A program made the translations under genes and the position numbers. From an uncultured Chitinophaga sp. (lineage in GTDB: Bacteria; Bacteroidota; Bacteroidia; UKL13-3), in assembly GCA_964603255.1 (NCBI GenBank), contig CAZRVA010000001.1:1177-65176 (forward strand): a stretch of 64,000 nt of DNA. Reading direction: 5' to 3'. Each line of letters starts with the position of its first letter. The first letter of the stretch is position 1. Below are positions 1 through 15,510 of this stretch, in pieces. Below the pieces are notes generated by a model. It was not told the origin of the DNA and ran no database searches. It saw only the letters and a program-made list of their open reading frames with translations.

Positions 1-713
1 AAAGTTCCCGGGATACGCACATCGTTTCCATCTGCATCTTTAACTACTTTACCGGTTACCGGGTTTCCTTCGCGTTTAACACGTCCGGCTTCACGCACAT
101 CAAACGCAACGCTATTAGCCAAACGAACAGATTTTGTATTTAGGTTTACGTTGTATGCAATTAAAAAATCGCGTGCACCAATTACGGTACCGCCCCATTT
201 TGCGTTAAACTCAGCCGGCCCAAAATCAGGTTTCCACTCCGGTAATTTTATTTTGTCAAAAAAGCCTTCATATTCACCGGCACGAATTACCGATAAGTTT
301 TTACGTGCTTCGTTTGGTTGAGCAGCTTCGTATAAGTACACCGGAATATTAAGTTCCTCGCCAACCCGCTTACCTAATTTTTGAGCATAAACCACAGTTT
401 CTTCCATGGTAATACCACTTACCGGAATTAAAGGACACACATCAGTTGCACCCATACGTGGATGTTCGCCTTTGTGTTTACTCATGTCAATTAATTCGGA
501 TGCTTTTTTAATAGCCAAGTAGGCTGCTTCAATTACCACATCAGGATGGCCAACAAAAGTTACAACCGTTCTGTTAGTGGCTTTTCCGGGATCAACGTCT
601 AACAACATTACGCCTTCTACCGATTCTATTTGGTCGGTTATTTGTTTGATGATTCCTAAATCAACCCCTTCGCTAAAATTAGGAACACACTCTATTAATG
701 CATTTTTATTCAT
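1..713 (-). CDS. Glutamate formimidoyltransferase (formiminotransferase domain); 5' part only, 3' end lies beyond the window start
   Basis: Reverse-strand translation from the ATG at 713 gives MNKNALIECVPNFSEGVDLGIIKQITDQIESVEGV..., the characteristic FTCD_N N-terminus. The ORF runs off the window edge. Confidence 0.75.
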   Translation of the reverse strand, partial: MNKNALIECVPNFSEGVDLGIIKQITDQIESVEGVMLLDVDPGKATNRTVVTFVGHPDVVIEAAYLAIKKASELIDMSKHKGEHPRMGATDVCPLIPVSGITMEETVVYAQKLGKRVGEELNIPVYLYEAAQPNEARKNLSVIRAGEYEGFFDKIKLPEWKPDFGPAEFNAKWGGTVIGARDFLIAYNVNLNTKSVRLANSVAFDVREAGRVKREGNPVTGKVVKDADGNDVRIPGT

Positions 714-760
714 GAGTAAAAAGTATGCTAAATGATTCGGCAAATAAACAACTAAAAACG

Positions 761-787
761 AAAAAAGCCCCGGGAAATTCCCGAGGC
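761..787 (-). terminator. Rho-independent terminator of the 822..8105 giant gene
   Basis: The hairpin gccccgggaaattcccgaggc has an 8-bp stem with one mismatch. On the plus strand it is preceded by A6, which is a U-run after the stem on the minus-strand transcript. It sits 35 nt after the stop codon. Confidence 0.7.
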
Positions 788-821
788 TCTCTCACAAACA
801 TCAAACTATCAAGAACACTAC

Positions 822-3800
822 TTAGTTCTTAATCATTTTTATTACAACTTCTTGTCCATCAACAGCTATTTTAACAAAATAAATACCGGTGTTTAGGTTG
901 CTCATTTCGTTGATAGAAATGGTGTTGCTACCTTCTGCAACCTGGTAATTGTTAGATAATATGCTGCGACCACTGAAGTCGAATACAGTTACGTTAGCAG
1001 TAGATGCTTTAGTTGCATTTACACTAACAGTAACATCAGCGTTAAAAGGATTTGGATAAGCGCTGATTGAATTGGTATTGTTCATTTCGTTTAACAATAC
1101 AACCACATTGCTTAAGCTTGATTTACCATCAAAGTCTACTTGTTTTAAACGGTAGTATACTTTGCTAACGGCATTATTAAATACGCCATTATCAATAAAG
1201 GTATAAGTTGATTTTATATTTGTATTTCCTGCACCTTTAACAAAACCAATTGTTTCGAAAGTACGTCCGTCAAAACTACGTTGCACATCAAAGCCTTTGT
1301 TGTTAGATTCTGATGCAGTAACCCAGGTTAAACGAGCATCGTTAACTTTTTTAGCAGCTGTAAAACTTGCCCATTTAACCGGAACCGGAGTATTTAATAC
1401 CTCATCAGCACCCATATAAGTAAATGCTAAACGGGTATTTCCGTCAATATCAACCGGAACTTCAATTCTTACCAAGCAAGAATATGTTGGATTGCCAACA
1501 GAAGCACCTGTTAAATGTAAATCAGACAACGAAACAAACGATGTTGAATCTGACACTGAATTTACATCTTGAACAAGGGCTGCTTTCCATGCGGTTAATG
1601 AAGTAACATCAGCACCCAAGAACCCAAATACAGCTTGCGTGCCAAATGCAAAATAATTGTTGTAATTGATATCAACTGTGGCTGGATTCGTTAATGCTGA
1701 AGCAATAGCGTATGCTTTAGCCGAGGCACTTAGGTTATTTTCAATACCATTAATAAAAATGTTGTTACGTGCTAATAGATTGGTTACACCTGATGCTACG
1801 TAAACAGCAGCCGACTGGGTAGCTGAAGATCTATTCGCATTTCCTCTTAAAGAAACTGTATTGTGTAACAATGAGATGTTTCCAGTGCTACCCAAAATAC
1901 GAAGCCCAACTATTCCATCACCGGCTAAACTTGTCCATCCATCACCCAAAATATTAGAAATCATGTTATTTGAAACTATGATATTGCTTATGGCTAATCC
2001 AGTATTAATATCAATTCCTTTACCCCCATATCCGCCAGTTCCGGCATAAATAATACTATCAACAACATTTCTGGTAATTGTTGCATTTTCAACGCCTGTT
2101 TGCACAAGAATACCAGTTGTTCCATCGCCCATTGCAGTGTTTGTTGAGTTGATATTTTTAATGTAGTTATTGCTGATCATTAAGCCATTGGTTTGCATTA
2201 CATAAATACCCGCATTTGTTACTGTATTTAGATTAACCACATTACCAATAGTGTTATTACTAATAACCATCCCTTTGTTTTTATTTAGAGATGTTCCTGA
2301 TGCATAAATTGCATAACCAACTTTTGTGAACTCATTATTCTCTATCACTAAACTATCGTTATCAGCACCTGTACCCGAACTTGATATGGTAGCTCCTGCA
2401 GCATAAATACCAAATGAAGTTGCTACTGCTGATGTATCACCTTGTATTTTTGTGTTTTTAACTTTGATACCTATTGCACCAGCAGTATTGCCCATACTTT
2501 GTACCCAAATAACTGCGGTGTTACCAATACGTGATGTATTGGTGATAGTCAAATCACGTGTATTTCCGGTTGTGGCTGCTCCATCAATAGTAATGTAATC
2601 TGCACCATTAAATTTAAAGATAGACTGATTGCTTGCACCAGAAATAGAAACTGTGTTGTTTAAAGTTGGCTTAATGGTAACCGGATTGTTAATACCCATA
2701 CCACCAAATACATCAAATGCAATTGGGAATGTTTCCGTTGCTGCTGTGTATGAGGCATCAGTTAACTCAAAAGTAACAGGAGCACTTACACCACGTAAAT
2801 TAAGTTGAGAAACCGCTTGGGTTAATGATGTAAAGTTTGGCGAAGTTTGCGATGCTCCAACCAAGTAAGTTCCTGCAAGTGGCGCTCCAATAATTGTAAA
2901 TGAGTTTCTTGAGGTAGGAACAGAAGTAATGTTAGCAACACTACTTGCCACAAATCCTATTGATGGGTTGGCAGAAACATTAGCTGTTGTAATCAAATCC
3001 TGCGCTGTTACAAAATATTCAATAACATCACCTGTTGCAACTGTACCTGTTAAGTATAATAACGAATAATCAATTGTAAAACTAAAAGGTGATGAAGTGT
3101 TGGTTGCCTCCACATATTTCCAACCATTAAAACTTGATGAGTTATCTGTTGGATAGTTACCCAATGCATTTGCATCAGTAGTACGTTTGAAATAAATACG
3201 AGGTTTGTTTGTTGTAACGTTTACACCACTTACGTCTGTAATAGCTGCAAACGCAGATAGCACAGGATTACTGGTTGAACTTGTATTTGCAATTTGCGTG
3301 TAAGTAATAGTAGGACCCGCAAGGTCTACTGTATTTTCGTAAGCACCAATAGTAGGTGCGGTTGCCGAACGAATTGCATTGTTAAAGTCTCTATCAATTG
3401 TGCTTATTATCGCGGCAAACCCACCAACAGTTCCTAACCCTGCAATTAAAGTTGTATCATTAACAAAAGTAGGATTTACAGCAATAGAATTTGCATTGGC
3501 ACCTGTACTTGTTTGAAGTCCGGTTAATGTATTTACATCAGTTCCGTTTGCATTCATTAAAATACCAAATGTACCACCACCAAAAAAATTGTTATTATTA
3601 AAAGTTAACCCAGGAATTGTTCCACTTACGGTAGTCCAATAGGCATAGTGTTTTGATCCGGCTAAACCTGTTGTATTGTTACTAAAAATATTATTTCTAA
3701 TATCAGATCCTGTGTAGGTTCCTGGTAAAATAAGTAATGGTGCTGAAGAGCTTGCTGAAGAACCATTTTGAGGAGCACCAAATAAATGAATGGTGTTGTA

Positions 3801-6800
3801 ATAAACTTTTAAGTTAGTTGCACCTGAAGCTAAACGAATTCCAAATGCGTTCCAAGTTGTGGATGTAGTACTATAGTTCGCTGTTTTAATATCATAAATA
3901 AGGTTATTATAAATCGAATCGTTATCTACACCAGTTCCTGATGCAATGTTTATTCCATAGGCTCCATAACCACTAGCGCTTGTAGAGTATATACCTTTAA
4001 TGACATTTCTCTTAATGGTACTATTGGTTAACCCTGATGCAATCCAAATACCAGCATTATTAATAGCACCACTTTGCTTTATGTTAAATATAATATTGTT
4101 TTCAATCAAAACTGAATCGGCATTTAACAAATACACGCCATTATTACGTGTAAAAAATGCGTTACTATCTGTTCCTATTCTGTTGTTTCTTAATGATACT
4201 TGTTTAACCTTATTAGCAACAGAACTACCACTAATAACAACACCATAGTCTGTGTTGTAAACATCATTGTTTTCAATTAGTAAGTTGCCATGACCAATAC
4301 CTCCTGAAGATAAACCTACGGTTGTACCACCCACAAGTATACCGTATGATGCCGCAGTATTGCTACCAGCCTTTACAATTGTATTTTTGAAAATAGTATT
4401 TCGTACACCTTGGTTTAATGCTGTACCTTGAAACATAACCACCGCACCTGTTGTGTTGGTGTTTTGTATTACTAAGTTTTGGCTTGTTGTATTATTGTTA
4501 GAACCATCAAAAATATAGTTTGATGCCCCATTAGCAAAACGTAAAATGGTAGTAGCATTTGAACCAGAAATTGTAGTGGAGACACCCGTATTTGGTTTTA
4601 TTGTTATAGTAAAGTTTGGATTTGTAGTTGGGAAAGCCACGAAGTTAATCGGGAAAGTTTCTGCTGTTGAAACATAGTCAGCATCCAGCAATAGCGTGAT
4701 ATTACCCTGAACTTGCTTACCCGATATATCTGCTAAAGCCGCGGTAATATTTGTGTAGTTTGGTGCTGTTTTAGTTGCACCAACTAAAAAGTTACCTGAT
4801 ATTGGTGTGATAACCTCACCTAATGCATAAAATCCTTCCAACAAGGTTGAAGAGGTAATTTTGTTGGTAAGCAATGTATTACCAATTGGTCCTGCACTTA
4901 CCGGTGCATAAACACCTGTCAAAGTTGAAGAGTAAGCAATACGATTTACACCAACCAAGTTAGCCGAAGTGAATCTTGCATAAGTACTATCCAAGTTGGC
5001 TTGTCCATTAGGAACTGTAATATTCCAATAACCATTTGTATATAGCGAATTTAACTGGCCTGCAGCAGGTGTACCTCCTGTGCTTGTGTTAAATCTTTCC
5101 ACTAAAACATCAACAGTACCATTTGCATTTGTACCAGTATTTACCAACTCTATTAGTCCATATGTACTTCCTTTACCTACGGGAAATGCTATTGTTCCGG
5201 CAGTTGTTAAAGAGGCTGGTATGGTACGTTGCATTGGGCCATCTACAAAGCTTGTTGTGCCACCTATAGTTGCGGTTCCAGTTGCTGCTATACGTAGAAG
5301 ATTTGTTGATGTAGTAATTAATTTACCGGCTGTCATTGTTAAAGTACCAGTAACATCTAGAGCACCACCAGCCAGTGTAACATGATTGGTATCAGCAATG
5401 GTTAAATTGGTAATCGTTCTTGAAGCTGGAATTTCTATACCAGTTGTGCGCATTGCACCTTCTTGTTGATAAATTAGTGAGTATGCTCCAGTTCCTAAAT
5501 TAAACGTAGGTGCAACATCAAAGATGCCTACGTTACCGTTTGTGTACCCAGCAACACCCACCTGTACTATTACAGCTTGTGTTGAGCCATTACCTAATGA
5601 AATATTATTGCTGTTTATAAGCTGAGTTGGGCTGAAAAAATTAACGCGATAAGTAGTAACAGATTTGTTAAACGTCACACCACCAACTGTATTTTGGTTA
5701 CTGATAGACTGATGTGTATCAGTTCCTGTGCCGCTATATGTTTGTGCTGAATTGCGGGCAAAAACCAAATTACTTCCAGCAACTGTTCCATCAACAGTTC
5801 CATTATTTGTAACAGTTGTGCCAGAGTTAAACAACACAAATCCATTTAAACTAAGTGTGCTTCCATTAGATACAGTTAAGCTGTTCCATACATTAAGCTG
5901 TGCACCCAATACTGCAGTTTTAGCATTGGTTGTATTATCAACCAATAAACTAGGCACATTACCTCTGATATTAAAATTGAAGTTTGTTGCAGTTGATGCG
6001 TTACCTATTTGTAAAGTACCTCCTGTTAAACCGTTAACTGGAGCTACGTTATAATCTTGTTGTGTTGTGCCTGTGCTTCGCTGCACCAATGTTAAGGTAC
6101 CTCCCGTCCAATTTATAATTGATGCAGCACTTGTAATACCAAATGATGGTGATGCAGATGTTGAATTACCAACAGTCGCCACATTAATATTACCACTACT
6201 AAAGTTAAAGTTAACTACGTTTCCTGTATTAATTCTTGCAGCAGCATTAACTGTTCCACCATCAACTGTAAATGTAGCGCCTGTACCAAAACCTAATACT
6301 TGTGCTGCTGTTTGAGAAACATTAAAAATACCTGCAGTAACTTGCAACAAACCATTAACTGTAGGACTGCCATTTGTTGATGTTACAATAAAATTAGGAT
6401 TATTAAGATGTAAACCGCCCGTCAAAGGAATGGTGTATGCGGCAGTTGTATATATTGGGTTTGATTGATTAAAAGAACCATTTATTTTTAACACACCAGC
6501 GGTGTGTGTTGAAATCAAACCAACTGTATTGGCACCTTGAACTGTAAATGGAGCTTCAATTTCTATCAATGGTCTGTTAACAGATACGGCACCTTTATTT
6601 AAAACAACAGTTCTAAAATCTAATAAAGTTGGCGTACCCGAAATTTTTGCGTTTAAAGTTCCAAAGAAATTTACCGTTACTCCTGCACTGGTATTAAAAT
6701 CTGCAGTACCATCAACAACTAGAGACCCCTCTCCCAAACCAGTAGCAGCTGATCCTCCTAACCTTAAATTATGCGTAGTTAATGTTCCTGTTCCTGCATC

Positions 6801-8105
6801 AAAAACGCCACCTGTAGCAACATAAACATTTCCATTAACAGTTAGTGTAGCGGCAGTTGTTGCATCAAAATTCAATACACCTGATGTTCCTGTTCCTACC
6901 CTAACGGCATGACATAACGGAGTTAAGCCATCAATGGTAACCGTAGCACCATCAACAATTACAACCGAATCAGATGCAGTTGGTACAATACCATTTGCCC
7001 AAGTCGATGTGCTTGTCCAATTACCACCGGTTGAAGTTGAGAGCAAGGCTGAAGCGTTGGTAGTAGAAACGGTTGTAGTTGCAAACTTAGAAATATCAGA
7101 CTCTGATGCAGCTGTTACCCTGAAGGTATAAGCTTTGCTTGGAAACAATCCTGTTACATTATATGTAGTTGCGTTTGATGGTAATGTTCCAATTGTTGAG
7201 TAAGTTAAACCACCATCATTAGATTGTTCTACAGTATAATAAGTTTCATTGCTTGCAGCATCAGTCCAATTTAAAGTTAGTGTTGATGCGGTAATTGCTG
7301 TAGCAGTTAAACCAGTTGGTGCAGCTGTTACAGCCGGAGATGGTGTAAAAGTAAGTACCCTTCTACTGCCTTGGGCAGTAGAATGTAATCCATTTATAAC
7401 TCCAGCTGCGAAAGTATTGGTAACAAGCGTTGCTGAAGCAGCTGAAGTTGGCGGTACGGCCACTGTTACTGTTTGTGCAGTTGAAACTGTGTTACTAGAT
7501 GCCAGGAATATTGCTCTGGTAACTGATGAACCCGCCTGCATTGGACCATACAAATATTGTATCGTACCATTTTCATACAACCAAACCTGCATATCTGCAG
7601 CTGGGTTTGAAACACCCCATGGCACAGCAAAACCAGGAAACTCTAATTTAAAAATTCGATTTGGTGCTGTACCTGTTACTACAAATCGAACTGCATCATT
7701 TGTTGCGTTATCACCTGACATTGGTGCTAAAGTAACCGTATTGGCTGCTAATGCTGAAACATTGCCTGTTGCAATTGCAGTTTCTGAAGAATTACGGTGC
7801 AAACGCATTTGGCCATTAGAGTTAGCACTAAAATGCGTGTAATTGACACCCATGAACGTGAATGGAAAACCTATAGGAAATAGGCCTGTGTTACGATCAT
7901 CGTTGTAACCTACAACCATATTACCCGTACCAGCAGTTGTTGTGGCACCAGTCATCGGATCAAGTGAACCTGTTGTGCTCGTTGAAAACACATAGTTACT
8001 GATGTTTTGAGCTTGTACGAGACTGAGTCCCGCAAACAAAGCTGTTAATACAATTTTCCGGCCATAGGAAAAAAGATTACTCATTTTTAGTAATGGATTC
8101 TTCAT
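822..8105 (-). CDS. Giant secreted cell-surface protein (~2427 aa) with parallel beta-helix-like repeats, FN3-like segments and a type-A T9SS C-terminal sorting domain; putative adhesin
   Basis: The ORF-track frame 822..8177 begins at a TTG; the first ATG with a signal peptide (MKNPLLKMSNLFSYGRKIVLTALFAGLSLVQA|QNISNY) is at 8105. The protein has many NNxIxxN/GxxxxN beta-helix-type repeats and is Thr/Asn/Gly-rich. The C-terminus ...YPNPFNADVTVSV...GIYFVKIAVDGQEVVIKMIKN is typical of a Por secretion (T9SS) CTD. The N- and C-terminal ~150-200 aa are paralogous to those of the 8542..15159 protein. Confidence 0.85.
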   Translation of the reverse strand: MKNPLLKMSNLFSYGRKIVLTALFAGLSLVQAQNISNYVFSTSTTGSLDPMTGATTTAGTGNMVVGYNDDRNTGLFPIGFPFTFMGVNYTHFSANSNGQMRLHRNSSETAIATGNVSALAANTVTLAPMSGDNATNDAVRFVVTGTAPNRIFKLEFPGFAVPWGVSNPAADMQVWLYENGTIQYLYGPMQAGSSVTRAIFLASSNTVSTAQTVTVAVPPTSAASATLVTNTFAAGVINGLHSTAQGSRRVLTFTPSPAVTAAPTGLTATAITASTLTLNWTDAASNETYYTVEQSNDGGLTYSTIGTLPSNATTYNVTGLFPSKAYTFRVTAASESDISKFATTTVSTTNASALLSTSTGGNWTSTSTWANGIVPTASDSVVIVDGATVTIDGLTPLCHAVRVGTGTSGVLNFDATTAATLTVNGNVYVATGGVFDAGTGTLTTHNLRLGGSAATGLGEGSLVVDGTADFNTSAGVTVNFFGTLNAKISGTPTLLDFRTVVLNKGAVSVNRPLIEIEAPFTVQGANTVGLISTHTAGVLKINGSFNQSNPIYTTAAYTIPLTGGLHLNNPNFIVTSTNGSPTVNGLLQVTAGIFNVSQTAAQVLGFGTGATFTVDGGTVNAAARINTGNVVNFNFSSGNINVATVGNSTSASPSFGITSAASIINWTGGTLTLVQRSTGTTQQDYNVAPVNGLTGGTLQIGNASTATNFNFNIRGNVPSLLVDNTTNAKTAVLGAQLNVWNSLTVSNGSTLSLNGFVLFNSGTTVTNNGTVDGTVAGSNLVFARNSAQTYSGTGTDTHQSISNQNTVGGVTFNKSVTTYRVNFFSPTQLINSNNISLGNGSTQAVIVQVGVAGYTNGNVGIFDVAPTFNLGTGAYSLIYQQEGAMRTTGIEIPASRTITNLTIADTNHVTLAGGALDVTGTLTMTAGKLITTSTNLLRIAATGTATIGGTTSFVDGPMQRTIPASLTTAGTIAFPVGKGSTYGLIELVNTGTNANGTVDVLVERFNTSTGGTPAAGQLNSLYTNGYWNITVPNGQANLDSTYARFTSANLVGVNRIAYSSTLTGVYAPVSAGPIGNTLLTNKITSSTLLEGFYALGEVITPISGNFLVGATKTAPNYTNITAALADISGKQVQGNITLLLDADYVSTAETFPINFVAFPTTNPNFTITIKPNTGVSTTISGSNATTILRFANGASNYIFDGSNNNTTSQNLVIQNTNTTGAVVMFQGTALNQGVRNTIFKNTIVKAGSNTAASYGILVGGTTVGLSSGGIGHGNLLIENNDVYNTDYGVVISGSSVANKVKQVSLRNNRIGTDSNAFFTRNNGVYLLNADSVLIENNIIFNIKQSGAINNAGIWIASGLTNSTIKRNVIKGIYSTSASGYGAYGINIASGTGVDNDSIYNNLIYDIKTANYSTTSTTWNAFGIRLASGATNLKVYYNTIHLFGAPQNGSSASSSAPLLILPGTYTGSDIRNNIFSNNTTGLAGSKHYAYWTTVSGTIPGLTFNNNNFFGGGTFGILMNANGTDVNTLTGLQTSTGANANSIAVNPTFVNDTTLIAGLGTVGGFAAIISTIDRDFNNAIRSATAPTIGAYENTVDLAGPTITYTQIANTSSTSNPVLSAFAAITDVSGVNVTTNKPRIYFKRTTDANALGNYPTDNSSSFNGWKYVEATNTSSPFSFTIDYSLLYLTGTVATGDVIEYFVTAQDLITTANVSANPSIGFVASSVANITSVPTSRNSFTIIGAPLAGTYLVGASQTSPNFTSLTQAVSQLNLRGVSAPVTFELTDASYTAATETFPIAFDVFGGMGINNPVTIKPTLNNTVSISGASNQSIFKFNGADYITIDGAATTGNTRDLTITNTSRIGNTAVIWVQSMGNTAGAIGIKVKNTKIQGDTSAVATSFGIYAAGATISSSGTGADNDSLVIENNEFTKVGYAIYASGTSLNKNKGMVISNNTIGNVVNLNTVTNAGIYVMQTNGLMISNNYIKNINSTNTAMGDGTTGILVQTGVENATITRNVVDSIIYAGTGGYGGKGIDINTGLAISNIIVSNNMISNILGDGWTSLAGDGIVGLRILGSTGNISLLHNTVSLRGNANRSSATQSAAVYVASGVTNLLARNNIFINGIENNLSASAKAYAIASALTNPATVDINYNNYFAFGTQAVFGFLGADVTSLTAWKAALVQDVNSVSDSTSFVSLSDLHLTGASVGNPTYSCLVRIEVPVDIDGNTRLAFTYMGADEVLNTPVPVKWASFTAAKKVNDARLTWVTASESNNKGFDVQRSFDGRTFETIGFVKGAGNTNIKSTYTFIDNGVFNNAVSKVYYRLKQVDFDGKSSLSNVVVLLNEMNNTNSISAYPNPFNADVTVSVNATKASTANVTVFDFSGRSILSNNYQVAEGSNTISINEMSNLNTGIYFVKIAVDGQEVVIKMIKN

Positions 8106-8187
8106 AATTATAAAATTTAAAATGCAAAAGCCATTTACGGATAGGTAAATGACATCAAACTGATTGTAATAAATCAACGGATAACTG

Positions 8188-8292
8188 CTATTCGTTCCAG
8201 CAGGTAGTATTATGAGCCTTTCGAACTCCTCTGTAAACAGAAGGAGCTATACTTAATACCGCACCGGCAGCAAGTAAATCACTATCCGACAT
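8188..8292 (-). CDS. Small conserved upstream ORF (34 aa, MSDSDLLAAGAVLSIAPSVYRGVRKAHNTTCWNE) 82 nt upstream of the giant T9SS gene
   Basis: Hand translation of the reverse strand gives an ATG..TAG ORF. Its C-terminal 18 aa match the ORF at 15265..15402 (14 of 18 identical), and several of the nucleotide differences are synonymous (tct/tcc, gct/gcc). It is below the 60-aa cutoff of the ORF track. Confidence 0.4.
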   Translation of the reverse strand: MSDSDLLAAGAVLSIAPSVYRGVRKAHNTTCWNE

Positions 8293-8487
8293 GGTTGTCA
8301 AGATATGGATGCTGCCATCAGAATTGTGCAAATATTTTTTAAGTAGGCTATTCATTTGGTTTTAACGCGTTCGAAATTACATTTCATAAACGTAAATACA
8401 AGACGCCTTATTACATAATTCTGGTTGCACCTTTTTCAAAAATTATGTAAAAAATAAATATTGTATTGCTAATCAATTTTTTAAAAA

Positions 8488-8519
8488 CAAAAAAGCCTCG
8501 GGAATCACCCGAGGCTTTT
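8488..8519 (-). terminator. Rho-independent terminator of the 8542..15159 giant gene
   Basis: The A-run at 8488-8494 is followed by the perfect 8-bp stem gcctcggg-aatca-cccgaggc at 8495-8515 and then ttttat. The sequence is almost identical to the terminator at 761-787. Confidence 0.8.
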
Positions 8520-8541: not shown

Positions 8542-11500
8542 CTATTGTTTGATAAGTTTACTTATTTGTGTTGCACCAGAAGCATTTACTTTAATAAAGT
8601 ATACCCCTTGTGATAAATTTGATAAACCATCAACAATTAATGTTTGATTATTTTGATTTACCATTTGCTCTTTGGTTGTTATCAATCTTCCACTAATATC
8701 CAACACTTCAATTTTAACCATTCCAGCTTTTACATTTTGAAGTTCAATAGTCACCTTATCAGTAAATGGATTAGGATAAGTTACAACCGTTACATTTTCA
8801 ATTTCATTGTTATCAACTACAACAATTTGGCTGTAAGTATACTTACCATCATTATCCATTTGTTTTAAGCGGTAGTATAATTTACTTACTCCTGTTGTTA
8901 CAAATGCATTTGCATCTTCAAATCTGTAGTTGTTGGTTACGCTTGAATTACCCATTCCTTTCACAAAACCTACATATTCAAATGCGTTTCCGTCAATACT
9001 ACGCTCTACATTGAAACCACGGTTGTTTACTTCGCTTGCTGTTGTCCAGCTCACTAATACATCATCGTTTACTTTGGTTGCTTTCAAGCTAACTAATTTA
9101 ACCGGTGTAGTGGTGGTGTTGCTGCTGATAGCACCTGCAAAGCTAATGTGCATGTACTTACCGTTGTATTCGTATACATCAAATGTATAACCTGTTAATT
9201 GTGTTAAACCTGTTACGTTTACACTTGTACCATTACCCATGTAAACAATAAAGTTACCGGTACCTGTTGTATTAGCAGAACCGAATACTGCACTTGCACC
9301 ATATAATGCATTATTGGTTGGCGCAACAGCTAAGGTTGATGATAAACGGGCTACAACCATGCGGCCTTGACCATTACCTGCGGTAAAGTTTACTGTTGCA
9401 CTGGTTGCACTTGGTGTAACTGTTACATTGCTGGCTGCTGTGGTTGGCGTTGTTACATTTACTACCTCAATATCATCTATTGCCCATCCTTCATCTGTAA
9501 CATAGGTATCAGAAATAAATCTGAATCTAAAACGAACATTAGCCTGTCCTGCTGCGCCCACTAATCTGAACGCACTTTGAATCCATCCGTTGGTTTGACT
9601 TGCATAAACGCTGCCAGAACCAACATCATTTGAGAAGTAAGGAGGGATTAATATACCGCCATTAGGAACGTTGTTCGTATTATCGTTGTACCATGCATAG
9701 CTATTTGTAGTATTGAAGTTACCACCCGTACCCACTAGACTATCAACACGAGTCCAGAAACCGCCATTGATCGATCGTTCAACAATTAAACCGTCCCACT
9801 CTGCTTCACTCTTGAACTTATGATAGAAACGAACAATTGGATCTGTTGTACTTGACGTAAAATCAAATTGAGGAGAAACCAATGATGCATCATGATCAAT
9901 GTCATAGCTACCTATTAGCTTCGTAGCCCATGCTTTGGTTCCACTTCTTGCTCCATTTAGATAAGTCTTGTTTGGTGTTCCCAACGTCCAATTGTTATTG
10001 GTAACTATACCAATAACCCAATTTATACTAGTATTAGTTGATGTTAATGCTGACGACCAGCCTGTATTTACGTTACCCTCAAAATCCTGAGTATAAGGTA
10101 ACGTGCTTATTATAGGAGAGGTTGTAAAACTATCTTCCACACTATATCCAGTACCTATGCTATTACTTGCATAAGCTCTGAAATAATATTTTGTTGAATG
10201 TGTAAGTGATGAAGCGTTTATATTGTAGATGCCTGATAGAACTGCAGGAGAAGTTGGCACATCTACTACACCTGTTCCAAACAAGGTTGGATTCGGTGTC
10301 GTTGAGTACACCACACCACTTGCTATTACTGTAGAACCTCCATCAGAAGTAATATTACCACCTAGGGTTGCTGTTGTGGTGCTGATTGCTAGAGGAGTTA
10401 ATTTTAGTACAGATGGAACAACCGCTTGGGCATTAGTTGTAAAAGTACTGTCTGCACCATAAGATGTTCCTAATGCGTTAACTGCATAAGCTCTGTAATA
10501 ATAAGTCGTTGCTAAGGTCAATCCAGTTATGTTACGCAAGAAACTACCAGATGTTACCAATGGATTGGTTGCTGAATCAATTACACCGGCTGTACCTCTT
10601 GTTGGATTTGGAGAAGTTGACAATACGATACCGCTTGCAGTTACAGCGTTTCCACCGTTATTTAAAATCGTACCTGATAATGTAACTGTGCTAGTGGTAA
10701 TACCAGTCTTAGTTCCAGTTGATACAATAGGTGCAGAAGGCGCAAACAACTCAATATCATCTATTGCCCAACCATCATTCTCTACGCTACCATCTGTTAC
10801 AAAACGGAATCGTATTCTAACGTTGTTCTGTCCGGCTGTTCCCGGCAACACAATACTTGATGTAATCCATCCACTTGCTGCGGTTGAATATGCGTTACTA
10901 CTATTACCCCAAGTATTACCCTGAGCGGTAACATTGTACCATGCAGTTCCGTTAGTGGTATTGAAATTTGTTCCCGTACCAACAAAATTCTCAACTTTTG
11001 TCCATGCTCCACCATTAATTGATAACTCAAGCATACCGCCATCGCAGCATGATTCTGTAATAAACTTATGCTTAAATCTAAGTATTGGATTACTTGTCAT
11101 TGCGCTTAAATCTAACTGAGGTGATGTGATAGCTGCATTATGACTAGTTGAGTAATTACCAGATAACTTAGTTACCATCGCATTTGGTGCTGAAAACGCT
11201 GATGACAAGAATGTTTTTGTCGGTGCTCCAATAACCCAATCATTAAGGGTTCCTGTAACAGGGGCTGATGTCCATCCGCTATTCATTGTGGTATCAAAGT
11301 TTTGGAAGTATGGCAAAGCACTAACTACAGGTGCTGTTGTAAAGCTATCCTGAGCGCTATAAGCGGTTCCGATACTATTGGTTGCGTAAGCTCGGTAGTA
11401 ATACTTGGTTGAATGAACTAAACCAGCCGTTGTTATTGAGAATGTTCCTAAAGTTACAACAGGGGTTGTTGTTGAATCTACAACTCCGGTTCCAAACAGC

Positions 11501-14500
11501 GTTGGGTTAGGAGTAGTTGAGTAAACGATTCCACTTGCTGTTACAGCAGAACCACCATCACTGGTAATGTTTCCGCCAACAGTTGCACCGTAAGCCTGAA
11601 CGTTTGTAGCTGATGTTCTTAGTACTGTAGGTGCAACCGCAGAAGCATTGGTTGTGAATGTACTATCTGCTCCATAACTAGTTCCCATGCCATTTACAGC
11701 ATATGCACGATAATAGTAGGTTGTTGCAACTGATAAATTAGCCACGTTTAAGGTAAACTGACCACCGCTTACCAATGGATTAGTTGCTGAATCAATAACA
11801 CCAAAACCACCGCGAACAGGTGAAGGTGAAGTACTTATAACAATACCACTTGCTGTAATAGTAGCGTTACCATTTCCGGTGATATTACCAGCTAAAGTAG
11901 CCGCACTTGTTGTAACATTGGCAAAAGTACCTGTAACAACTGTTGGGGTAGTTGGTGGAAACACCTCGATATTATCAACTGCCCAACCCTCTTGTGTACC
12001 AAAGAAAGTGTATGTAGTTGATGCAAAACGCAATCTAAAGCGTACGTTTGACTGACCAGCAGCACCTGTTAACCTTGTGGTGGTTTGCACCCATCCGTTT
12101 ACTTGTGATGAATATCCATTTGATGAGCCTGAGAAATTAGCACCGATAGTTGGTGTCCAGAATCCATTTGATGCGTTATTGTACCATGTTGTACTGGTAG
12201 CTGTATTGAAATTTGTCCCTGTGCCCACTAGGTTGTCCAATTGAGTCCAAGAGTTACCACCATTTGTTGAAATCTCAACAATAGCGCCATCTACACCTGA
12301 AACAGCAGAAATTTTATGACGGAATCTTAAGATTGGATCTGCAGTTTGGTTGGTAAAATCGAACTGAGGAGACAGAATATAAGCATCAACAGCATTACTG
12401 TAATTACCTGTTAATTTTGTAACCCATGCCTTTGGTGCCGAGTATGCACCATTAATAAACGTTTTTGCTGGTGTACCTAACTGCCAATCGTTAACACCCA
12501 AACCTAACGAAGAAGAAGTCCAAGGAGTGTAAGAAGAATCGAAATTCTCGTTGTATGGTAAAGTTGTAACAATAGGTTGTGTAAGGAAACTATCTAATAC
12601 ACTGTATCCGGTACCCACACTATTGGTTGCATATGCGCGATAATAGTATTTTGTTGCAGGTGTCAAGCCAGCTGGTGTAATAGTATATTGACCAATGGTA
12701 ACCACTGGTGTTGTTGTAGAATCCACAACCCCAACACCAGATAACAATGGATTGTTGGTTGTTGAATATACAAAACCACTTGCAGTTACAGTAGATCCAC
12801 CATCAGAGGTGATGTTAGCTCTTAAACCGGCTGTTGTTGTATTTACATTTATTGCGTCAAGACGGACAACCGTAGGAACTACACTTACAGCATTTGTCGT
12901 GAAAATACTGTCTACACCGTAACTTGTACCAACTGCATTTACAGCATATGCACGATAATAATATGTAGTTGCCAAAGTAAGGTTAGCAGCATTTAGATTA
13001 AATGCACCGTTAATCACAACCGGGCTTGTTGCCGTGTCTATTACGCCAATACCACCTCTTACAGGTGATGGAGAAGTAGAAAGTACAAAACCACTTGCTG
13101 TTATTGTACTACCTCCATTATCAGTAATTGTTCCTGAGAGATTAGCTAGATTGGTTGTAATATTTGAACTTGTGCCGGTAACAACTGTTGGTGCACTAGG
13201 GGCAAATACTTCGATGTTATCAATTGCCCATCCCTCTTCAACTGCGCTACCATCAGTAACAAAGCGGAAGCGAATTTTTACATTTGATTGACCGGCAGCT
13301 CCAGGTAGAGCAATGCTACTGGTAATCCAACCATTTACTGCACTCGAATAAGCAGTGCTTTGATTACCCCATGAGTTACCTTGAGCTCCTACGTTATACC
13401 ATGCAGTTCCGTTTACCGTGTTGAAGTTTCCTCCAGCTCCTAAAGTGTTTTCTACTTTTGTCCAGGCACCACCATTTATTGAGATTTCTAAGATACCACC
13501 ATCACAGCAAGATTCTGTTCTAAATTTATGTTTAAATCTCAAAATCGGATTTGCTGTCATTCCCGTAAAGTCAAATTGTGGCGATACAAGAGCAGCATTG
13601 TGGTTATCGTTGTAATTTGTTGTTAATCCGGTAATCCAAGCATTTGGAGCAGAGAAAGCAGCAGATATGTTTGCCTTAGCTGGAGTTCCTAATACCCAAT
13701 TATTAAATGTACCACCAACTACATTTGATGTCCAACCAGTATTTACAGCGGTATCAAAATTTTGTTGATATGGTAATGCATTTACAACCGGAGCAGTTGT
13801 AAAGGTTCCTTGTGTACCATAAGCAGTACCAACACTGTTGGTGGCGTATGCACGGAAATAATAAGTTGTTGATGGTGTGAGACCAAGCAGGTTAAAATTA
13901 TAGATGCCACTGGTAAGCAATGGAGTTGTTGTTGAATCGATAACGCCTAAACCGCCAACTGCAGGATTGGCACTTGTACTAAATACCACACCACTTGCAG
14001 TTATTGCAGCACCACCATCTAATGTGATGTTTAGACCAACGTTGGCATTATAAGCTCCTACTGCAGTTGCATTTATTGTGGCAACAGTAGGTACAGATGC
14101 TGATAAATTGGTTGTGAAAGTACTGTCGGCACCGTAAGTAGTGCCTAGTGAATTTATTGCATAGGCACGATAATGGTAGGTAGTACCAACATTTAACCCT
14201 GTAAATAATCTTGTGAAATTACCAGATCCAACTGTTGGACTTGTGACAGAATCAATAACACCAGTTCCACCAATTGTTGGATTGGCTGATGTACCAACCA
14301 CTATACCGCTTGTTGTTACAGCAGGAAATGCGCCAGGAGCAATAAATCCTGCTAAACTGGCTTGATTTGTAGTAATACCAGAGGCTGATCCAGTTGCAAC
14401 AACCGGAGCACCTGGTACTGGAGGATTGAACTGATAAATTTGACCATTAGCCGGTTTAACACCAATTGATGTTGTTTCAGTTGTTGAACTGGCCGTAGGT

Positions 14501-15159
14501 GCATTGGTAGTATTATTTAAAGATAAAAAGTTACCCGAACCAGTAGCAACACCAGAGATACCTATTGATGCTGATCCAAATCCTAATGGAGTAGACTCTT
14601 GTCTGTAAATAAACTGAATTGCTCCAGAGTTTTTAAATAATTTTACCTGAAAGGAAATTACCGGACCACCTGTCCAATTCCAATCAACATTAAGCCATTC
14701 TGCAGTAAAAACACTGTCAGTTCCACTGCTAATGGCTTCACTTTTGTAGGTAAAAGTAGTTCCTGTACCGTTGTGGTCATCCCAAAGAGGCGACAAAACC
14801 GGACGAGCACCCACAAGTCCATTGCTTACATTGTTGGTCCAGGTTGTTTGGGTCATTGATCCTACCAAACTTAACCAACCATTTGTACATGCTGCAGCTG
14901 ATGTGTAGGTTCCACCAGCATAATTGAATGCAAATCCTATTGGAATATTATTCCAATAGCCATCATCGGTGTTACCACCACTTAGTGTGGCTGGCGTGGT
15001 TCCTCCAGTAATTGGCGTGAATGTTCCTGAGGTTGCAGAGAACACGTAATTAGAAACTTGTTGGGCATGCGTAATAAATACGCTTGCACCAAACAAAACT
15101 GCCAGGAAAGCCAATTTTAGGCTTCCCCACCTTCGTTTTAGTGTAGTGTTTGTTTTCAT
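8542..15159 (-). CDS. Giant secreted cell-surface protein (2205 aa) with four tandem modules of FN3-like pairs plus MAM/galactose-binding-like domains and a type-A T9SS C-terminal sorting domain; putative adhesin
   Basis: ATG at 15159 with signal peptide MKTNTTLKRRWGSLKLAFLAVLFGASVFITHA|QQVSNY. There are four repeats of ...PILRFKHKF.[TS]ESCCDGG.LE.SINGG.WTKVEN...GWAIDNIEVF... separated by FN3-like YYYRAYA.N..GTSYG units. The C-terminus TYPNPFTDKVTIEL...GVYFIKVNASGATQISKLIKQ is a T9SS CTD. The termini are paralogous to the 822..8105 protein. Confidence 0.88.
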   Translation of the reverse strand: MKTNTTLKRRWGSLKLAFLAVLFGASVFITHAQQVSNYVFSATSGTFTPITGGTTPATLSGGNTDDGYWNNIPIGFAFNYAGGTYTSAAACTNGWLSLVGSMTQTTWTNNVSNGLVGARPVLSPLWDDHNGTGTTFTYKSEAISSGTDSVFTAEWLNVDWNWTGGPVISFQVKLFKNSGAIQFIYRQESTPLGFGSASIGISGVATGSGNFLSLNNTTNAPTASSTTETTSIGVKPANGQIYQFNPPVPGAPVVATGSASGITTNQASLAGFIAPGAFPAVTTSGIVVGTSANPTIGGTGVIDSVTSPTVGSGNFTRLFTGLNVGTTYHYRAYAINSLGTTYGADSTFTTNLSASVPTVATINATAVGAYNANVGLNITLDGGAAITASGVVFSTSANPAVGGLGVIDSTTTPLLTSGIYNFNLLGLTPSTTYYFRAYATNSVGTAYGTQGTFTTAPVVNALPYQQNFDTAVNTGWTSNVVGGTFNNWVLGTPAKANISAAFSAPNAWITGLTTNYNDNHNAALVSPQFDFTGMTANPILRFKHKFRTESCCDGGILEISINGGAWTKVENTLGAGGNFNTVNGTAWYNVGAQGNSWGNQSTAYSSAVNGWITSSIALPGAAGQSNVKIRFRFVTDGSAVEEGWAIDNIEVFAPSAPTVVTGTSSNITTNLANLSGTITDNGGSTITASGFVLSTSPSPVRGGIGVIDTATSPVVINGAFNLNAANLTLATTYYYRAYAVNAVGTSYGVDSIFTTNAVSVVPTVVRLDAINVNTTTAGLRANITSDGGSTVTASGFVYSTTNNPLLSGVGVVDSTTTPVVTIGQYTITPAGLTPATKYYYRAYATNSVGTGYSVLDSFLTQPIVTTLPYNENFDSSYTPWTSSSLGLGVNDWQLGTPAKTFINGAYSAPKAWVTKLTGNYSNAVDAYILSPQFDFTNQTADPILRFRHKISAVSGVDGAIVEISTNGGNSWTQLDNLVGTGTNFNTATSTTWYNNASNGFWTPTIGANFSGSSNGYSSQVNGWVQTTTRLTGAAGQSNVRFRLRFASTTYTFFGTQEGWAVDNIEVFPPTTPTVVTGTFANVTTSAATLAGNITGNGNATITASGIVISTSPSPVRGGFGVIDSATNPLVSGGQFTLNVANLSVATTYYYRAYAVNGMGTSYGADSTFTTNASAVAPTVLRTSATNVQAYGATVGGNITSDGGSAVTASGIVYSTTPNPTLFGTGVVDSTTTPVVTLGTFSITTAGLVHSTKYYYRAYATNSIGTAYSAQDSFTTAPVVSALPYFQNFDTTMNSGWTSAPVTGTLNDWVIGAPTKTFLSSAFSAPNAMVTKLSGNYSTSHNAAITSPQLDLSAMTSNPILRFKHKFITESCCDGGMLELSINGGAWTKVENFVGTGTNFNTTNGTAWYNVTAQGNTWGNSSNAYSTAASGWITSSIVLPGTAGQNNVRIRFRFVTDGSVENDGWAIDDIELFAPSAPIVSTGTKTGITTSTVTLSGTILNNGGNAVTASGIVLSTSPNPTRGTAGVIDSATNPLVTSGSFLRNITGLTLATTYYYRAYAVNALGTSYGADSTFTTNAQAVVPSVLKLTPLAISTTTATLGGNITSDGGSTVIASGVVYSTTPNPTLFGTGVVDVPTSPAVLSGIYNINASSLTHSTKYYFRAYASNSIGTGYSVEDSFTTSPIISTLPYTQDFEGNVNTGWSSALTSTNTSINWVIGIVTNNNWTLGTPNKTYLNGARSGTKAWATKLIGSYDIDHDASLVSPQFDFTSSTTDPIVRFYHKFKSEAEWDGLIVERSINGGFWTRVDSLVGTGGNFNTTNSYAWYNDNTNNVPNGGILIPPYFSNDVGSGSVYASQTNGWIQSAFRLVGAAGQANVRFRFRFISDTYVTDEGWAIDDIEVVNVTTPTTAASNVTVTPSATSATVNFTAGNGQGRMVVARLSSTLAVAPTNNALYGASAVFGSANTTGTGNFIVYMGNGTSVNVTGLTQLTGYTFDVYEYNGKYMHISFAGAISSNTTTTPVKLVSLKATKVNDDVLVSWTTASEVNNRGFNVERSIDGNAFEYVGFVKGMGNSSVTNNYRFEDANAFVTTGVSKLYYRLKQMDNDGKYTYSQIVVVDNNEIENVTVVTYPNPFTDKVTIELQNVKAGMVKIEVLDISGRLITTKEQMVNQNNQTLIVDGLSNLSQGVYFIKVNASGATQISKLIKQ
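9400..14350 (-). repeat. Intragenic tandem coding repeats (higher-order repeat: two ~2.46-kb units, each containing two diverged ~1.3-kb sub-repeats)
   Basis: The protein-level repeats listed above are mirrored by homologous antisense ORF-track fragments offset by ~2.46 kb (10229..10462 vs 12695..12922; 10934..11119 vs 13418..13615). Boundaries are approximate. Confidence 0.6.
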
Positions 15160-15264
15160 ATGTTTTTAATTTTTGTTGTTTTTAAAATAAACAGGCAATA
15201 GAATCACCAAGGGCTTTAGTAATCTGAAATTGGTGTTTTAAAAATTTTGATTAGCTACCAGATG

Positions 15265-15402
15265 CTATTCGTTCCAAAGGGTAGTATTACAGGCAGGTTT
15301 TATTCCTCTGTATAAGGAAGGTTTGGCACCAAAGCATACCTTTGATGCCGCAATCGATGTTGAGTAAAGATTATTCCGTGGAGTAGTTTTTTTGTTAGGC
15401 AT
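15265..15402 (-). CDS. Small conserved upstream ORF (45 aa, MPNKKTTPRNNLYSTSIAASKVCFGAKPSLYRGIKPACNTTLWNE) 105 nt upstream of the second giant T9SS gene
   Basis: Hand translation of the reverse strand gives an ATG..TAG ORF. Its C-terminus PSLYRGIKPACNTTLWNE* is paralogous to PSVYRGVRKAHNTTCWNE* at 8188..8292. Confidence 0.4.
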   Translation of the reverse strand: MPNKKTTPRNNLYSTSIAASKVCFGAKPSLYRGIKPACNTTLWNE

Positions 15403-15510
15403 ATCAACCAAATAATGGAATAACGAATATGCGGAACCTATTCGAAAGAAAACACTTAATTAATCTTAAATCTTAGTGCCCAAATACAAACTAATCCAAA
15501 TAAAATCGAA

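Follow-up and report, generated by a model that had tools for sequence, protein, structure and literature searches.

We analysed a 64,000-nucleotide (nt) stretch of DNA, here called the window, from an uncultured Chitinophaga sp. (contig CAZRVA010000001.1, positions 1,177 to 65,176 of the forward strand). It carries two giant genes for cargo proteins of the type IX secretion system (T9SS), each preceded on the same strand by a small open reading frame (sORF). A preliminary description had placed the two sORFs at 8292..8188 and 15402..15265 of the minus strand and proposed that they are a translated element retained with each giant gene. Both positions and both sequences were borne out, and the features concerned are as follows.

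8188..8355, minus strand: sORF1, 55 amino acids from the ATG at 8355, MNSLLKKYLHNSDGSIHILTTMSDSDLLAAGAVLSIAPSVYRGVRKAHNTTCWNE; stop codon TAG at 8190..8188.
8292..8188, minus strand: the 34-residue version of sORF1 as first read, from an internal ATG at 8292, encoding MSDSDLLAAGAVLSIAPSVYRGVRKAHNTTCWNE and then TAG.
8188..8247, minus strand: conserved C-terminal module of sORF1, APSVYRGVRKAHNTTCWNE plus stop, delimited from the family alignment and the codon table.
15265..15402, minus strand: sORF2, 45 amino acids, MPNKKTTPRNNLYSTSIAASKVCFGAKPSLYRGIKPACNTTLWNE; stop codon TAG at 15267..15265.
822..8105, minus strand: giant gene 1, 2427 amino acids, with fn3, G8, beta-helix and T9SS C-terminal sorting domains; presumed regulated gene.
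8542..15159, minus strand: giant gene 2, 2205 amino acids, with MAM/Reelin-like, fn3 and T9SS C-terminal sorting domains; presumed regulated gene.

The stop codon of sORF1 lies 82 nt before the ATG (8105) of the 2427-residue protein, and that of sORF2 105 nt before the ATG (15159) of the 2205-residue protein. The two sORFs share a block of ~60 nt, which is present in exactly two copies in the window and was seen in none of 100 shuffles. The peptide of sORF2 ends in PSLYRGIKPACNTTLWNE, followed by TAG, and its tail is identical to that of sORF1 at 12 of 18 positions with three further conservative changes, a weaker likeness than the near-identity first claimed. The reading of sORF1 as a 34-residue peptide also needs revision. 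The frame is open from the upstream ATG at 8355, which stands in an A-rich start context, and public gene calls carry the 55-residue form (P0011), with an identical product in eight public contigs; ATG 8355 rather than 8292 is most likely the start. The annotation of the source contig leaves sORF2 uncalled. At a related locus, L050, the public gene call P0010 (66 amino acids, L050 1683..1883) translates the TAG of sORF1 as Gln and so lengthens the peptide; the DNA at this locus has TAG, and the read-through was dismissed as an artefact of the gene caller. Gene callers miss sORFs of this family or assign them wrong starts.

Both giant proteins carry a Por_Secre_tail domain, the T9SS sorting signal, at the C-terminus. 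Their description as paralogues holds only in part, being limited to ~180 N-terminal residues (32% identity) and ~200 C-terminal residues (41% identity). Since the proteins share only their ends, the ~60-nt block upstream is far better conserved than the genes behind it. sORF1 has a giant gene on either side and follows a strong terminator:

8491..8519, minus strand: strong terminator-like hairpin 3′ of giant gene 2, dividing giant gene 2 from the sORF1–giant gene 1 unit.

Profile searches with the sORF peptides yielded a family of 12 distinct peptides of 30–75 amino acids, from metagenomes (P0009–P0016 and P0018–P0021). All 12 end in P-x4-G-x5-[NY]-T-T-[LC]-W-N-E, directly abutting the stop codon. 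The consensus of the last ~19 residues is [KR]P[AS]x[YL][RV]Gx[KR][PK]x[CHY]NTT[LC]WNE, in which P(−18), G(−13), T(−6), T(−5), W(−3), N(−2) and E(−1) are invariant, followed by the stop. Across the last 19 codons there are no indels among the 12 members and the stop falls at the same position in every one, in keeping with the earlier remark that conservation is concentrated beside the stop codon. The N-terminal parts, of 11–56 residues, vary in length and sequence and cannot be aligned. An exhaustive hidden Markov model scan of 1.84 billion representative proteins found the motif at no internal position, the matches being the family's small proteins only. No Pfam or NCBIfam family matched the sORF peptides at E ≤ 10, and a search of the literature gave no match to the motif string or to the sORF family.

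The coding signature was assessed on sORF DNA from nine lineages (window sORF1, L050, window sORF2, L049/L041, L043, L045, L048, L057 and L059), with syntenic orthologues of sORF2 in seven lineages; neighbouring LD-carboxypeptidases are 59–97% identical across lineages. Over the last 21 codons in eight lineages (summed Nei–Gojobori proportions), the sORF frame gave a proportion of synonymous differences (pS) of 0.69 and of non-synonymous differences (pN) of 0.26, a ratio of 0.38, with 0 stops; the other five frames of the same region gave pN/pS of 0.55–1.5 and 4–10 stops. For the last 11 codons of the sORF frame pN/pS was 0.25, and across comparisons it ranged from 0.25 to 0.42; the other sense frames gave 1.0 or more. 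Synonymous sites have come close to saturation. Among the sORF2 orthologues, the variable sites in the last 11 codons comprise seven third, three first and one second codon positions, and codons vary while amino acids are kept (Arg AGA/AGG/CGC/CGT; Leu CTT/CTG/TTG; Thr ACT/ACC/ACA; Gly GGA/GGC/GGT). The sORF1 orthologue in L050 differs from the window by three synonymous and two non-synonymous changes. The sORF frame is free of stops for 49–67 codons in every lineage, compared with 0–40 codons in the other two sense frames (at most 22 in all but one), and length differences between orthologues are all in frame. Antisense coding of the region was ruled out by the stops and the high pN/pS. Together, the open frame, low in-frame pN/pS, synonymous variation and in-frame indels argue that the element is very probably translated and that selection acts on the peptide. 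The proposal of a translated element retained with each giant gene and conserved next to its stop therefore stands: homologues keep the frame and change mostly at synonymous sites, and neither frame-breaking indels nor conservation at the nucleotide level only was seen. In these alignments, purifying selection on the amino acids is shown for the last ~19 residues and for the position of the stop directly after WNE; the N-terminal 11–56 residues drift freely.

The last codons are, in addition, nearly fixed at the nucleotide level: CTT in five of the seven lineages with Leu, TGG, AAC in eight of nine, GAA in all nine and TAG in eight of nine, with TAA in the ninth and TGA never used. By comparison, the 35 long ORFs of the window, whose GC content is 37%, end in TAA (30) or TAG (5; 14%) and never in TGA. 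The Leu codon at −4 is never TTA, the preferred codon (48% of Leu codons in the window); CTT accounts for 12%. The last five sORF codons, the stop among them, are non-preferred yet fixed. Judged against window usage, the near-fixed codons and the TAG bias indicate that there is codon- or nucleotide-level selection at the sORF 3′ end (CTT, TGG, AAC, GAA, TAG) on top of selection on the peptide. It could be caused by effects specific to a tRNA or to release factor 1 (RF1) at a stall site, or by RNA pairing. A small hairpin spans the stop codon in eight of nine lineages, with different downstream partner sequences; the hairpins are individually weak, with a combined p = 0.006.

Every sORF copy with DNA, in all nine lineages, lies on the same strand as a very large fn3/MAM-type gene and 82–197 nt upstream of it, which supports the earlier proposal. 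In all sORF2 orthologues the gene order is RecQ, NTP-transferase, LD-carboxypeptidase, sORF and large fn3/MAM-type gene. The window and L049, which come from two near-identical genomes, are 97–100% identical through the NTP-transferase, the LD-carboxypeptidase and the promoter region up to 15403; from the sORF2 ATG (15402) on, identity is 62–70%, and in the giant gene 70–85%. Because identity collapses exactly at the sORF2 ATG, the sORF is part of a fast-evolving giant-gene cassette and not of the housekeeping flank. The recombination-like boundary at 15403/15402 suggests allelic replacement of the sORF and giant gene as a cassette, and the alignments show the sORF to be inherited together with the giant gene. 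The tail of sORF2, ..NTTLWNE (15291..15265), also resembles the N-terminus of giant protein 2 (15159..15115) and its orthologues, MKT[NK]TTLKRRW (MKTNTTLKRRW in the window), and the sORF2 end and the start of giant gene 2 have AACACTACACT and AACGAA in common at the DNA level. The pair of sORF1 and giant gene 1 has no such resemblance. The likeness could reflect an origin by duplication, a shared RNA partner or chance.

Searched as degenerate DNA, the pattern YRG-x5-NTT-x-WNE had 0 matches in 185,579 species representative genomes; in JGI metagenomes it had one true sORF2 orthologue (L041) and one chance match. Upstream of 35 loci with homologues of the giant N-terminal domain (Flavobacterium, Ferruginibacter, UKL13-3, Chitinophaga and others), the motif and any comparable conserved sORF were absent, and no motif was found upstream of the second giant gene of L049. 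Some of the homologous loci have features of their own. At L001 680..760, upstream of a giant-gene homologue on a long-read, frameshift-prone contig, TGTAATTACTAACATCAACGAATA weakly resembles TGTAATACTACC...GGAACGAATAG. With a frameshift-ridden assembly and unfit spacing, it was not accepted as a family member and is ambiguous between a degenerate relative and a chance match. Flavobacterium homologues of giant gene 1 (L006–L029) carry an in-frame N-terminal extension of ~35–40 amino acids before the hydrophobic signal segment, of the pattern M-x-x-N-Y-[ND]-S ... G-S-P-P ... W, reminiscent of the extended signal peptide regions that very large autotransporters have. In a Ferruginibacter metagenome-assembled genome (L024), a tandem array of a ~101-nt repeat (292..909; 5.6 copies, 85% matches) lies upstream of a giant-gene homologue, with more copies nearer to that homologue (1780..2010); the array is unrelated to the sORF motif.

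Upstream of sORF2 there are two conserved boxes:

15421..15430, minus strand: ATATTCGTTA, 18 nt upstream of the sORF2 ATG; shared by all seven lineages with sORF2, absent upstream of sORF1.
15454..15470, minus strand: TTTAAGATTAATTAAGT, 23–24 nt upstream of the ATATTCGTTA box in five lineages; candidate promoter or operator element.

The TTTAAGATTAATTAAGT box is a candidate promoter or operator element by its sequence, and a sigma-70-like hexamer match begins within it in L048 and L057. The ATATTCGTTA box may be a promoter element or an RNA partner. In the sORF2 lineages the box ATATTCGTT precedes the start by 12–19 nt, or by 46 nt in L048, and in all seven the upstream box is complementary to the sORF end AACGAATA. 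In L059 the box and the nucleotides immediately 5′ of the ATG make up a 10-bp inverted repeat, and L049 has a copy of the box after the stop codon. Long-range pairing between the ATATTCGTT box and the sORF end was rejected, as its predicted probability is inconsistent (0.0–0.68) and sORF1 lacks the box. If the sORFs are arrest regulators, an interplay might in addition arise among three RNA segments, namely UAUUCGUU in the 5′ box, AACGAAUA at the sORF end and AACGAA at codons 8–10 of the giant gene. A reading of TGGAAC...GC / ...CGTT as a sigma-54 or extracytoplasmic function (ECF) promoter was rejected on inspection, with unfit spacings and an unconserved downstream half. Invertible promoter switches have inverted repeats around a segment of ~150–250 bp and occur in both orientations in populations. 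Such a switch, of the kind that drives phase variation in Bacteroidota, was discarded: the only inverted pair is 8 bp long (TATTCGTT / AACGAATA) with none at sORF1, all ~20 independent contigs have the same orientation, and the coding signature also speaks against it.

Between each sORF and its giant gene lies a spacer, as follows in the window.

8106..8187, minus strand: spacer 1, 82 nt; hairpin A at 8177..8160, hairpin B at 8153..8130 with a U-rich run behind it, and lastly a start region that is A/U-rich and unstructured.
15160..15264, minus strand: spacer 2, 105 nt; fast-evolving and G-poor, with a weak hairpin before an A-rich start region.

In all nine lineages with DNA the spacer is 82–197 nt long and evolves faster than everything around it. 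Spacer 1 differs between the window and L050 at ~14 positions, mostly in loops. None of the 23 predicted pairs, which make up two hairpins and the helix around them, is lost; at four of these pairs one base has changed in a way that still allows pairing. Minimum-energy folds of the sORF2 spacers contain hairpins, with weak z-scores. C exceeds G in most spacers, including those of the sORF2 group. Read-through fusion of the sORF to the giant gene was excluded, as the spacers hold in-frame stops and four of nine are out of frame. An intrinsic terminator in every spacer was likewise discarded, as only spacer 1 of the window passes the scan.

Conservation of the tail only, fixed spacing, an invariant stop position and fixed non-preferred codons favour a cis-acting, arrest-type leader; on sequence grounds, this conservation pattern and codon bias favour a nascent peptide acting in cis over a small partner protein. 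Each sORF would then be an upstream open reading frame (uORF) that is translated into a leader peptide and belongs to the 5′ leader of its giant T9SS-cargo gene. Its conserved tail would act as a nascent chain inside the ribosomal exit tunnel, where residues −1 to −3, −5 to −7, −13 and −18 would span the distance from the peptidyl-transferase centre to the tunnel constriction. Release by RF1 at the UAG stop would be slowed or blocked, as with TnaC, SpeFL and PepNL, and the paused ribosome would cover the first ~15 nt of the spacer. The pause would alter folding of the spacer (82–197 nt, G-poor, hairpin-containing) or access of Rho to it, and the state of the spacer would set the amount of transcription or translation reaching the 7-kb giant gene. 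The regulatory arrest and its read-out are the steps that we infer, and we rate the whole chain, from a nascent chain at its own stop codon to control of the giant gene, at about even chances.

Several observations weigh against this chain. The sORF family is restricted to one narrow uncultured clade and is not generally required for giant genes; homologues in other genera and the second giant gene of L049 lack the motif, so such genes do not generally need it. Read-out through the spacer could involve an intrinsic terminator, Rho access or masking of the start site, with no common structure established: hairpin B with its U-run in spacer 1 is the only site that passes a terminator scan, none was found in the spacers of the six other lineages scanned, and folding energies are mostly no better than those of shuffles (z from +1.3 to −2.1). 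The conservation pattern itself would also suit a short linear peptide acting after release. A small peptide acting in trans is accordingly the main rival to a cis-acting leader, and a serious one, though on balance we think it unlikely. Such a peptide could serve the giant protein, or the secretion of that protein, as partner, chaperone or regulator; alternatively, its conserved C-terminal ~19 residues could be the active portion of a pro-peptide, as in the Phr, PapR and ComS types. The coding signature and C-terminal conservation would be equally expected of it, the sORF is co-inherited with the giant gene, and a trans function has precedent among leader peptides, as in peTrpL. However, the peptides have no conserved signal peptide or hydrophobic segment (maximum Kyte–Doolittle hydropathy over 15 residues, −0.19 to 2.5), and the two contexts in the window have no processing, export or receptor gene in common, the giant gene being their sole common neighbour. 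A trans-acting peptide also leaves unexplained the synonymous-codon selection and TAG bias at the 3′ end and the abutting of the motif on the stop in 12 of 12 members. The specific case of a ribosomally synthesised and post-translationally modified peptide, or a signalling pro-peptide, was set aside: the neighbours are the LD-carboxypeptidase (at sORF2 only) and the giant gene, and the N-terminal 'leader' is the variable part.

That the conserved unit is a nucleotide-level element (promoter, operator, riboswitch-like RNA or target of a small RNA) with an incidental ORF would suit the almost invariant last 12 nt (TGGAACGAATAG), the complementarity of the sORF end AACGAATA to the upstream box TATTCGTT in all sORF2 lineages and a sigma-70-like hexamer pair inside the sORF1 block. 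We consider it improbable, since, upstream of the last four codons, the amino acids persist although synonymous sites have nearly saturated, no indel breaks the frame, and the frame runs for 49–67 codons without a stop. In Rfam gathering scans, the window and 20 related loci gave a single match, to an unrelated tRNA, and single-sequence folding gave no fold common to the two window copies (z from −1.6 to −1.95 and from +0.1 to +0.2); the pairing of box and sORF end is inconsistent, as noted above, and the box is missing at sORF1. A classical ribosome-mediated attenuator would sense a charged tRNA, such as those for Thr or Asn, which are abundant in giant proteins. The leader ORF followed by hairpins, the terminator-like hairpin and U-run in spacer 1 and the N, T, T and N codons of the motif are what it would lead one to expect, but two Thr and two Asn codons make no codon run, the invariant residues P, G, W and E are ones that tRNA sensing does not need, and neither a conserved terminator/antiterminator pair nor an Rfam leader-family match was found. 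Such an attenuator is a faint prospect, little stronger than a pure nucleotide element. The resemblance between the NTTLW of the sORF2 tail and MKTNTTLKRRW of giant protein 2, with the shared DNA AACACTACACT..AACGAA, invites the idea that the sORF 3′ end is a functionless relic, left when part of the 5′ end of giant gene 2 was duplicated. This is very improbable: pN/pS of 0.25–0.4, a fixed stop and an open frame are kept across lineages whose LD-carboxypeptidases are 60–75% identical, and sORF1 retains the motif though giant gene 1 has no NTTL start.

Returning to the cis-acting leader, several uORF peptides, namely TnaC, SpeFL, CruR, PepNL and NanCL, stall the ribosome at their own stop codon and gate Rho termination (PMC11890864, PMC12360218). 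TnaC, from the tnaCAB leader of Enterobacteria, is described (PMC12360218, PMC8450073) as stalling at its own stop by blocking the release factor and masking the start of a long spacer. The sORFs resemble it as short uORFs in the leader of the presumed regulated gene, and the key residues of TnaC, including a Trp, likewise stand at fixed distances from the C-terminus. TnaC, however, has 24 amino acids and ends in Pro-UGA, read by release factor 2 (RF2), whereas the sORF peptides have 30–75 and end in Glu-UAG, read by RF1. There is no sequence similarity, the phylum is another, and the presumed sORF target is a giant secreted protein and not a catabolic enzyme. SpeFL, the ornithine sensor of the speF leader, and the copper-sensing CruR of Bordetella are uORF peptides of ~30–40 amino acids that arrest at or near termination and control access of Rho to a downstream Rho utilisation (Rut) site (PMC12360218). 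The sORFs share their size range and their layout of uORF, spacer and gene, with spacers that are G-poor and, in the sORF2 group, richer in C than in G; there is no homology. In E. coli, PepNL and NanCL arrest at the stop codon without an inducer, as encoded by the peptide sequence alone, and the identity of the stop codon matters (PMC11890864), an effect that parallels the TAG preference of the sORFs. These peptides have 14 amino acids and a UGA stop, while the sORF peptides are longer and their conserved part spans 19 residues.

SecM, MifM and VemP also combine a conserved C-terminal arrest module with a variable N-terminus and are encoded upstream of an export-linked gene. They differ in having an N-terminal signal or transmembrane segment, which lets the translocon pull the arrest free, and the sORF family has no conserved translocon-engaging N-terminal segment (15-residue hydropathy maximum −0.19 to 2.5). 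The gene downstream of a sORF, moreover, encodes secreted cargo and not a component of the secretion machinery. The extended signal peptide region (ESPR) is a conserved N-terminal add-on of very large autotransporter and two-partner secretion (TPS) proteins and is part of the secreted protein. The ESPR and the sORF are alike as add-ons specific to very large secreted proteins, and the ~35-residue extension in Flavobacterium may be analogous; the sORF, in contrast, is a separate ORF ending 82–197 nt upstream.

By its layout, the sORF family would be classed with regulatory leader or arrest peptides, and if it is an arrest peptide it would be a new family. Regulatory arrest peptides are few and come mostly from Proteobacteria and Firmicutes. 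No leader or arrest peptide has previously been described from this phylum or from the context of giant T9SS cargo genes, and no database family or paper matches. Each new arrest-peptide family has revealed a new sensing mode of the ribosome tunnel. To our knowledge, essentially nothing is known of how costly giant T9SS surface proteins are regulated, and the comparative data supply a defined 19-residue motif with clear mutational predictions. In Bacteroidota, translation is initiated without Shine–Dalgarno pairing, and Rho is unusual (PMC12360218). A leader-peptide switch in this phylum, if true, would be informative given that translation system. We tentatively suggest, with rather less than even confidence, that the sORFs represent the first ribosome-arrest regulator known from Bacteroidota, and the first of any origin to be linked with a giant T9SS-secreted surface protein, in which TT[LC]WNE, its codons and a UAG stop read only by RF1 would hold the terminating ribosome and thereby gate a 7-kb adhesin-like gene.

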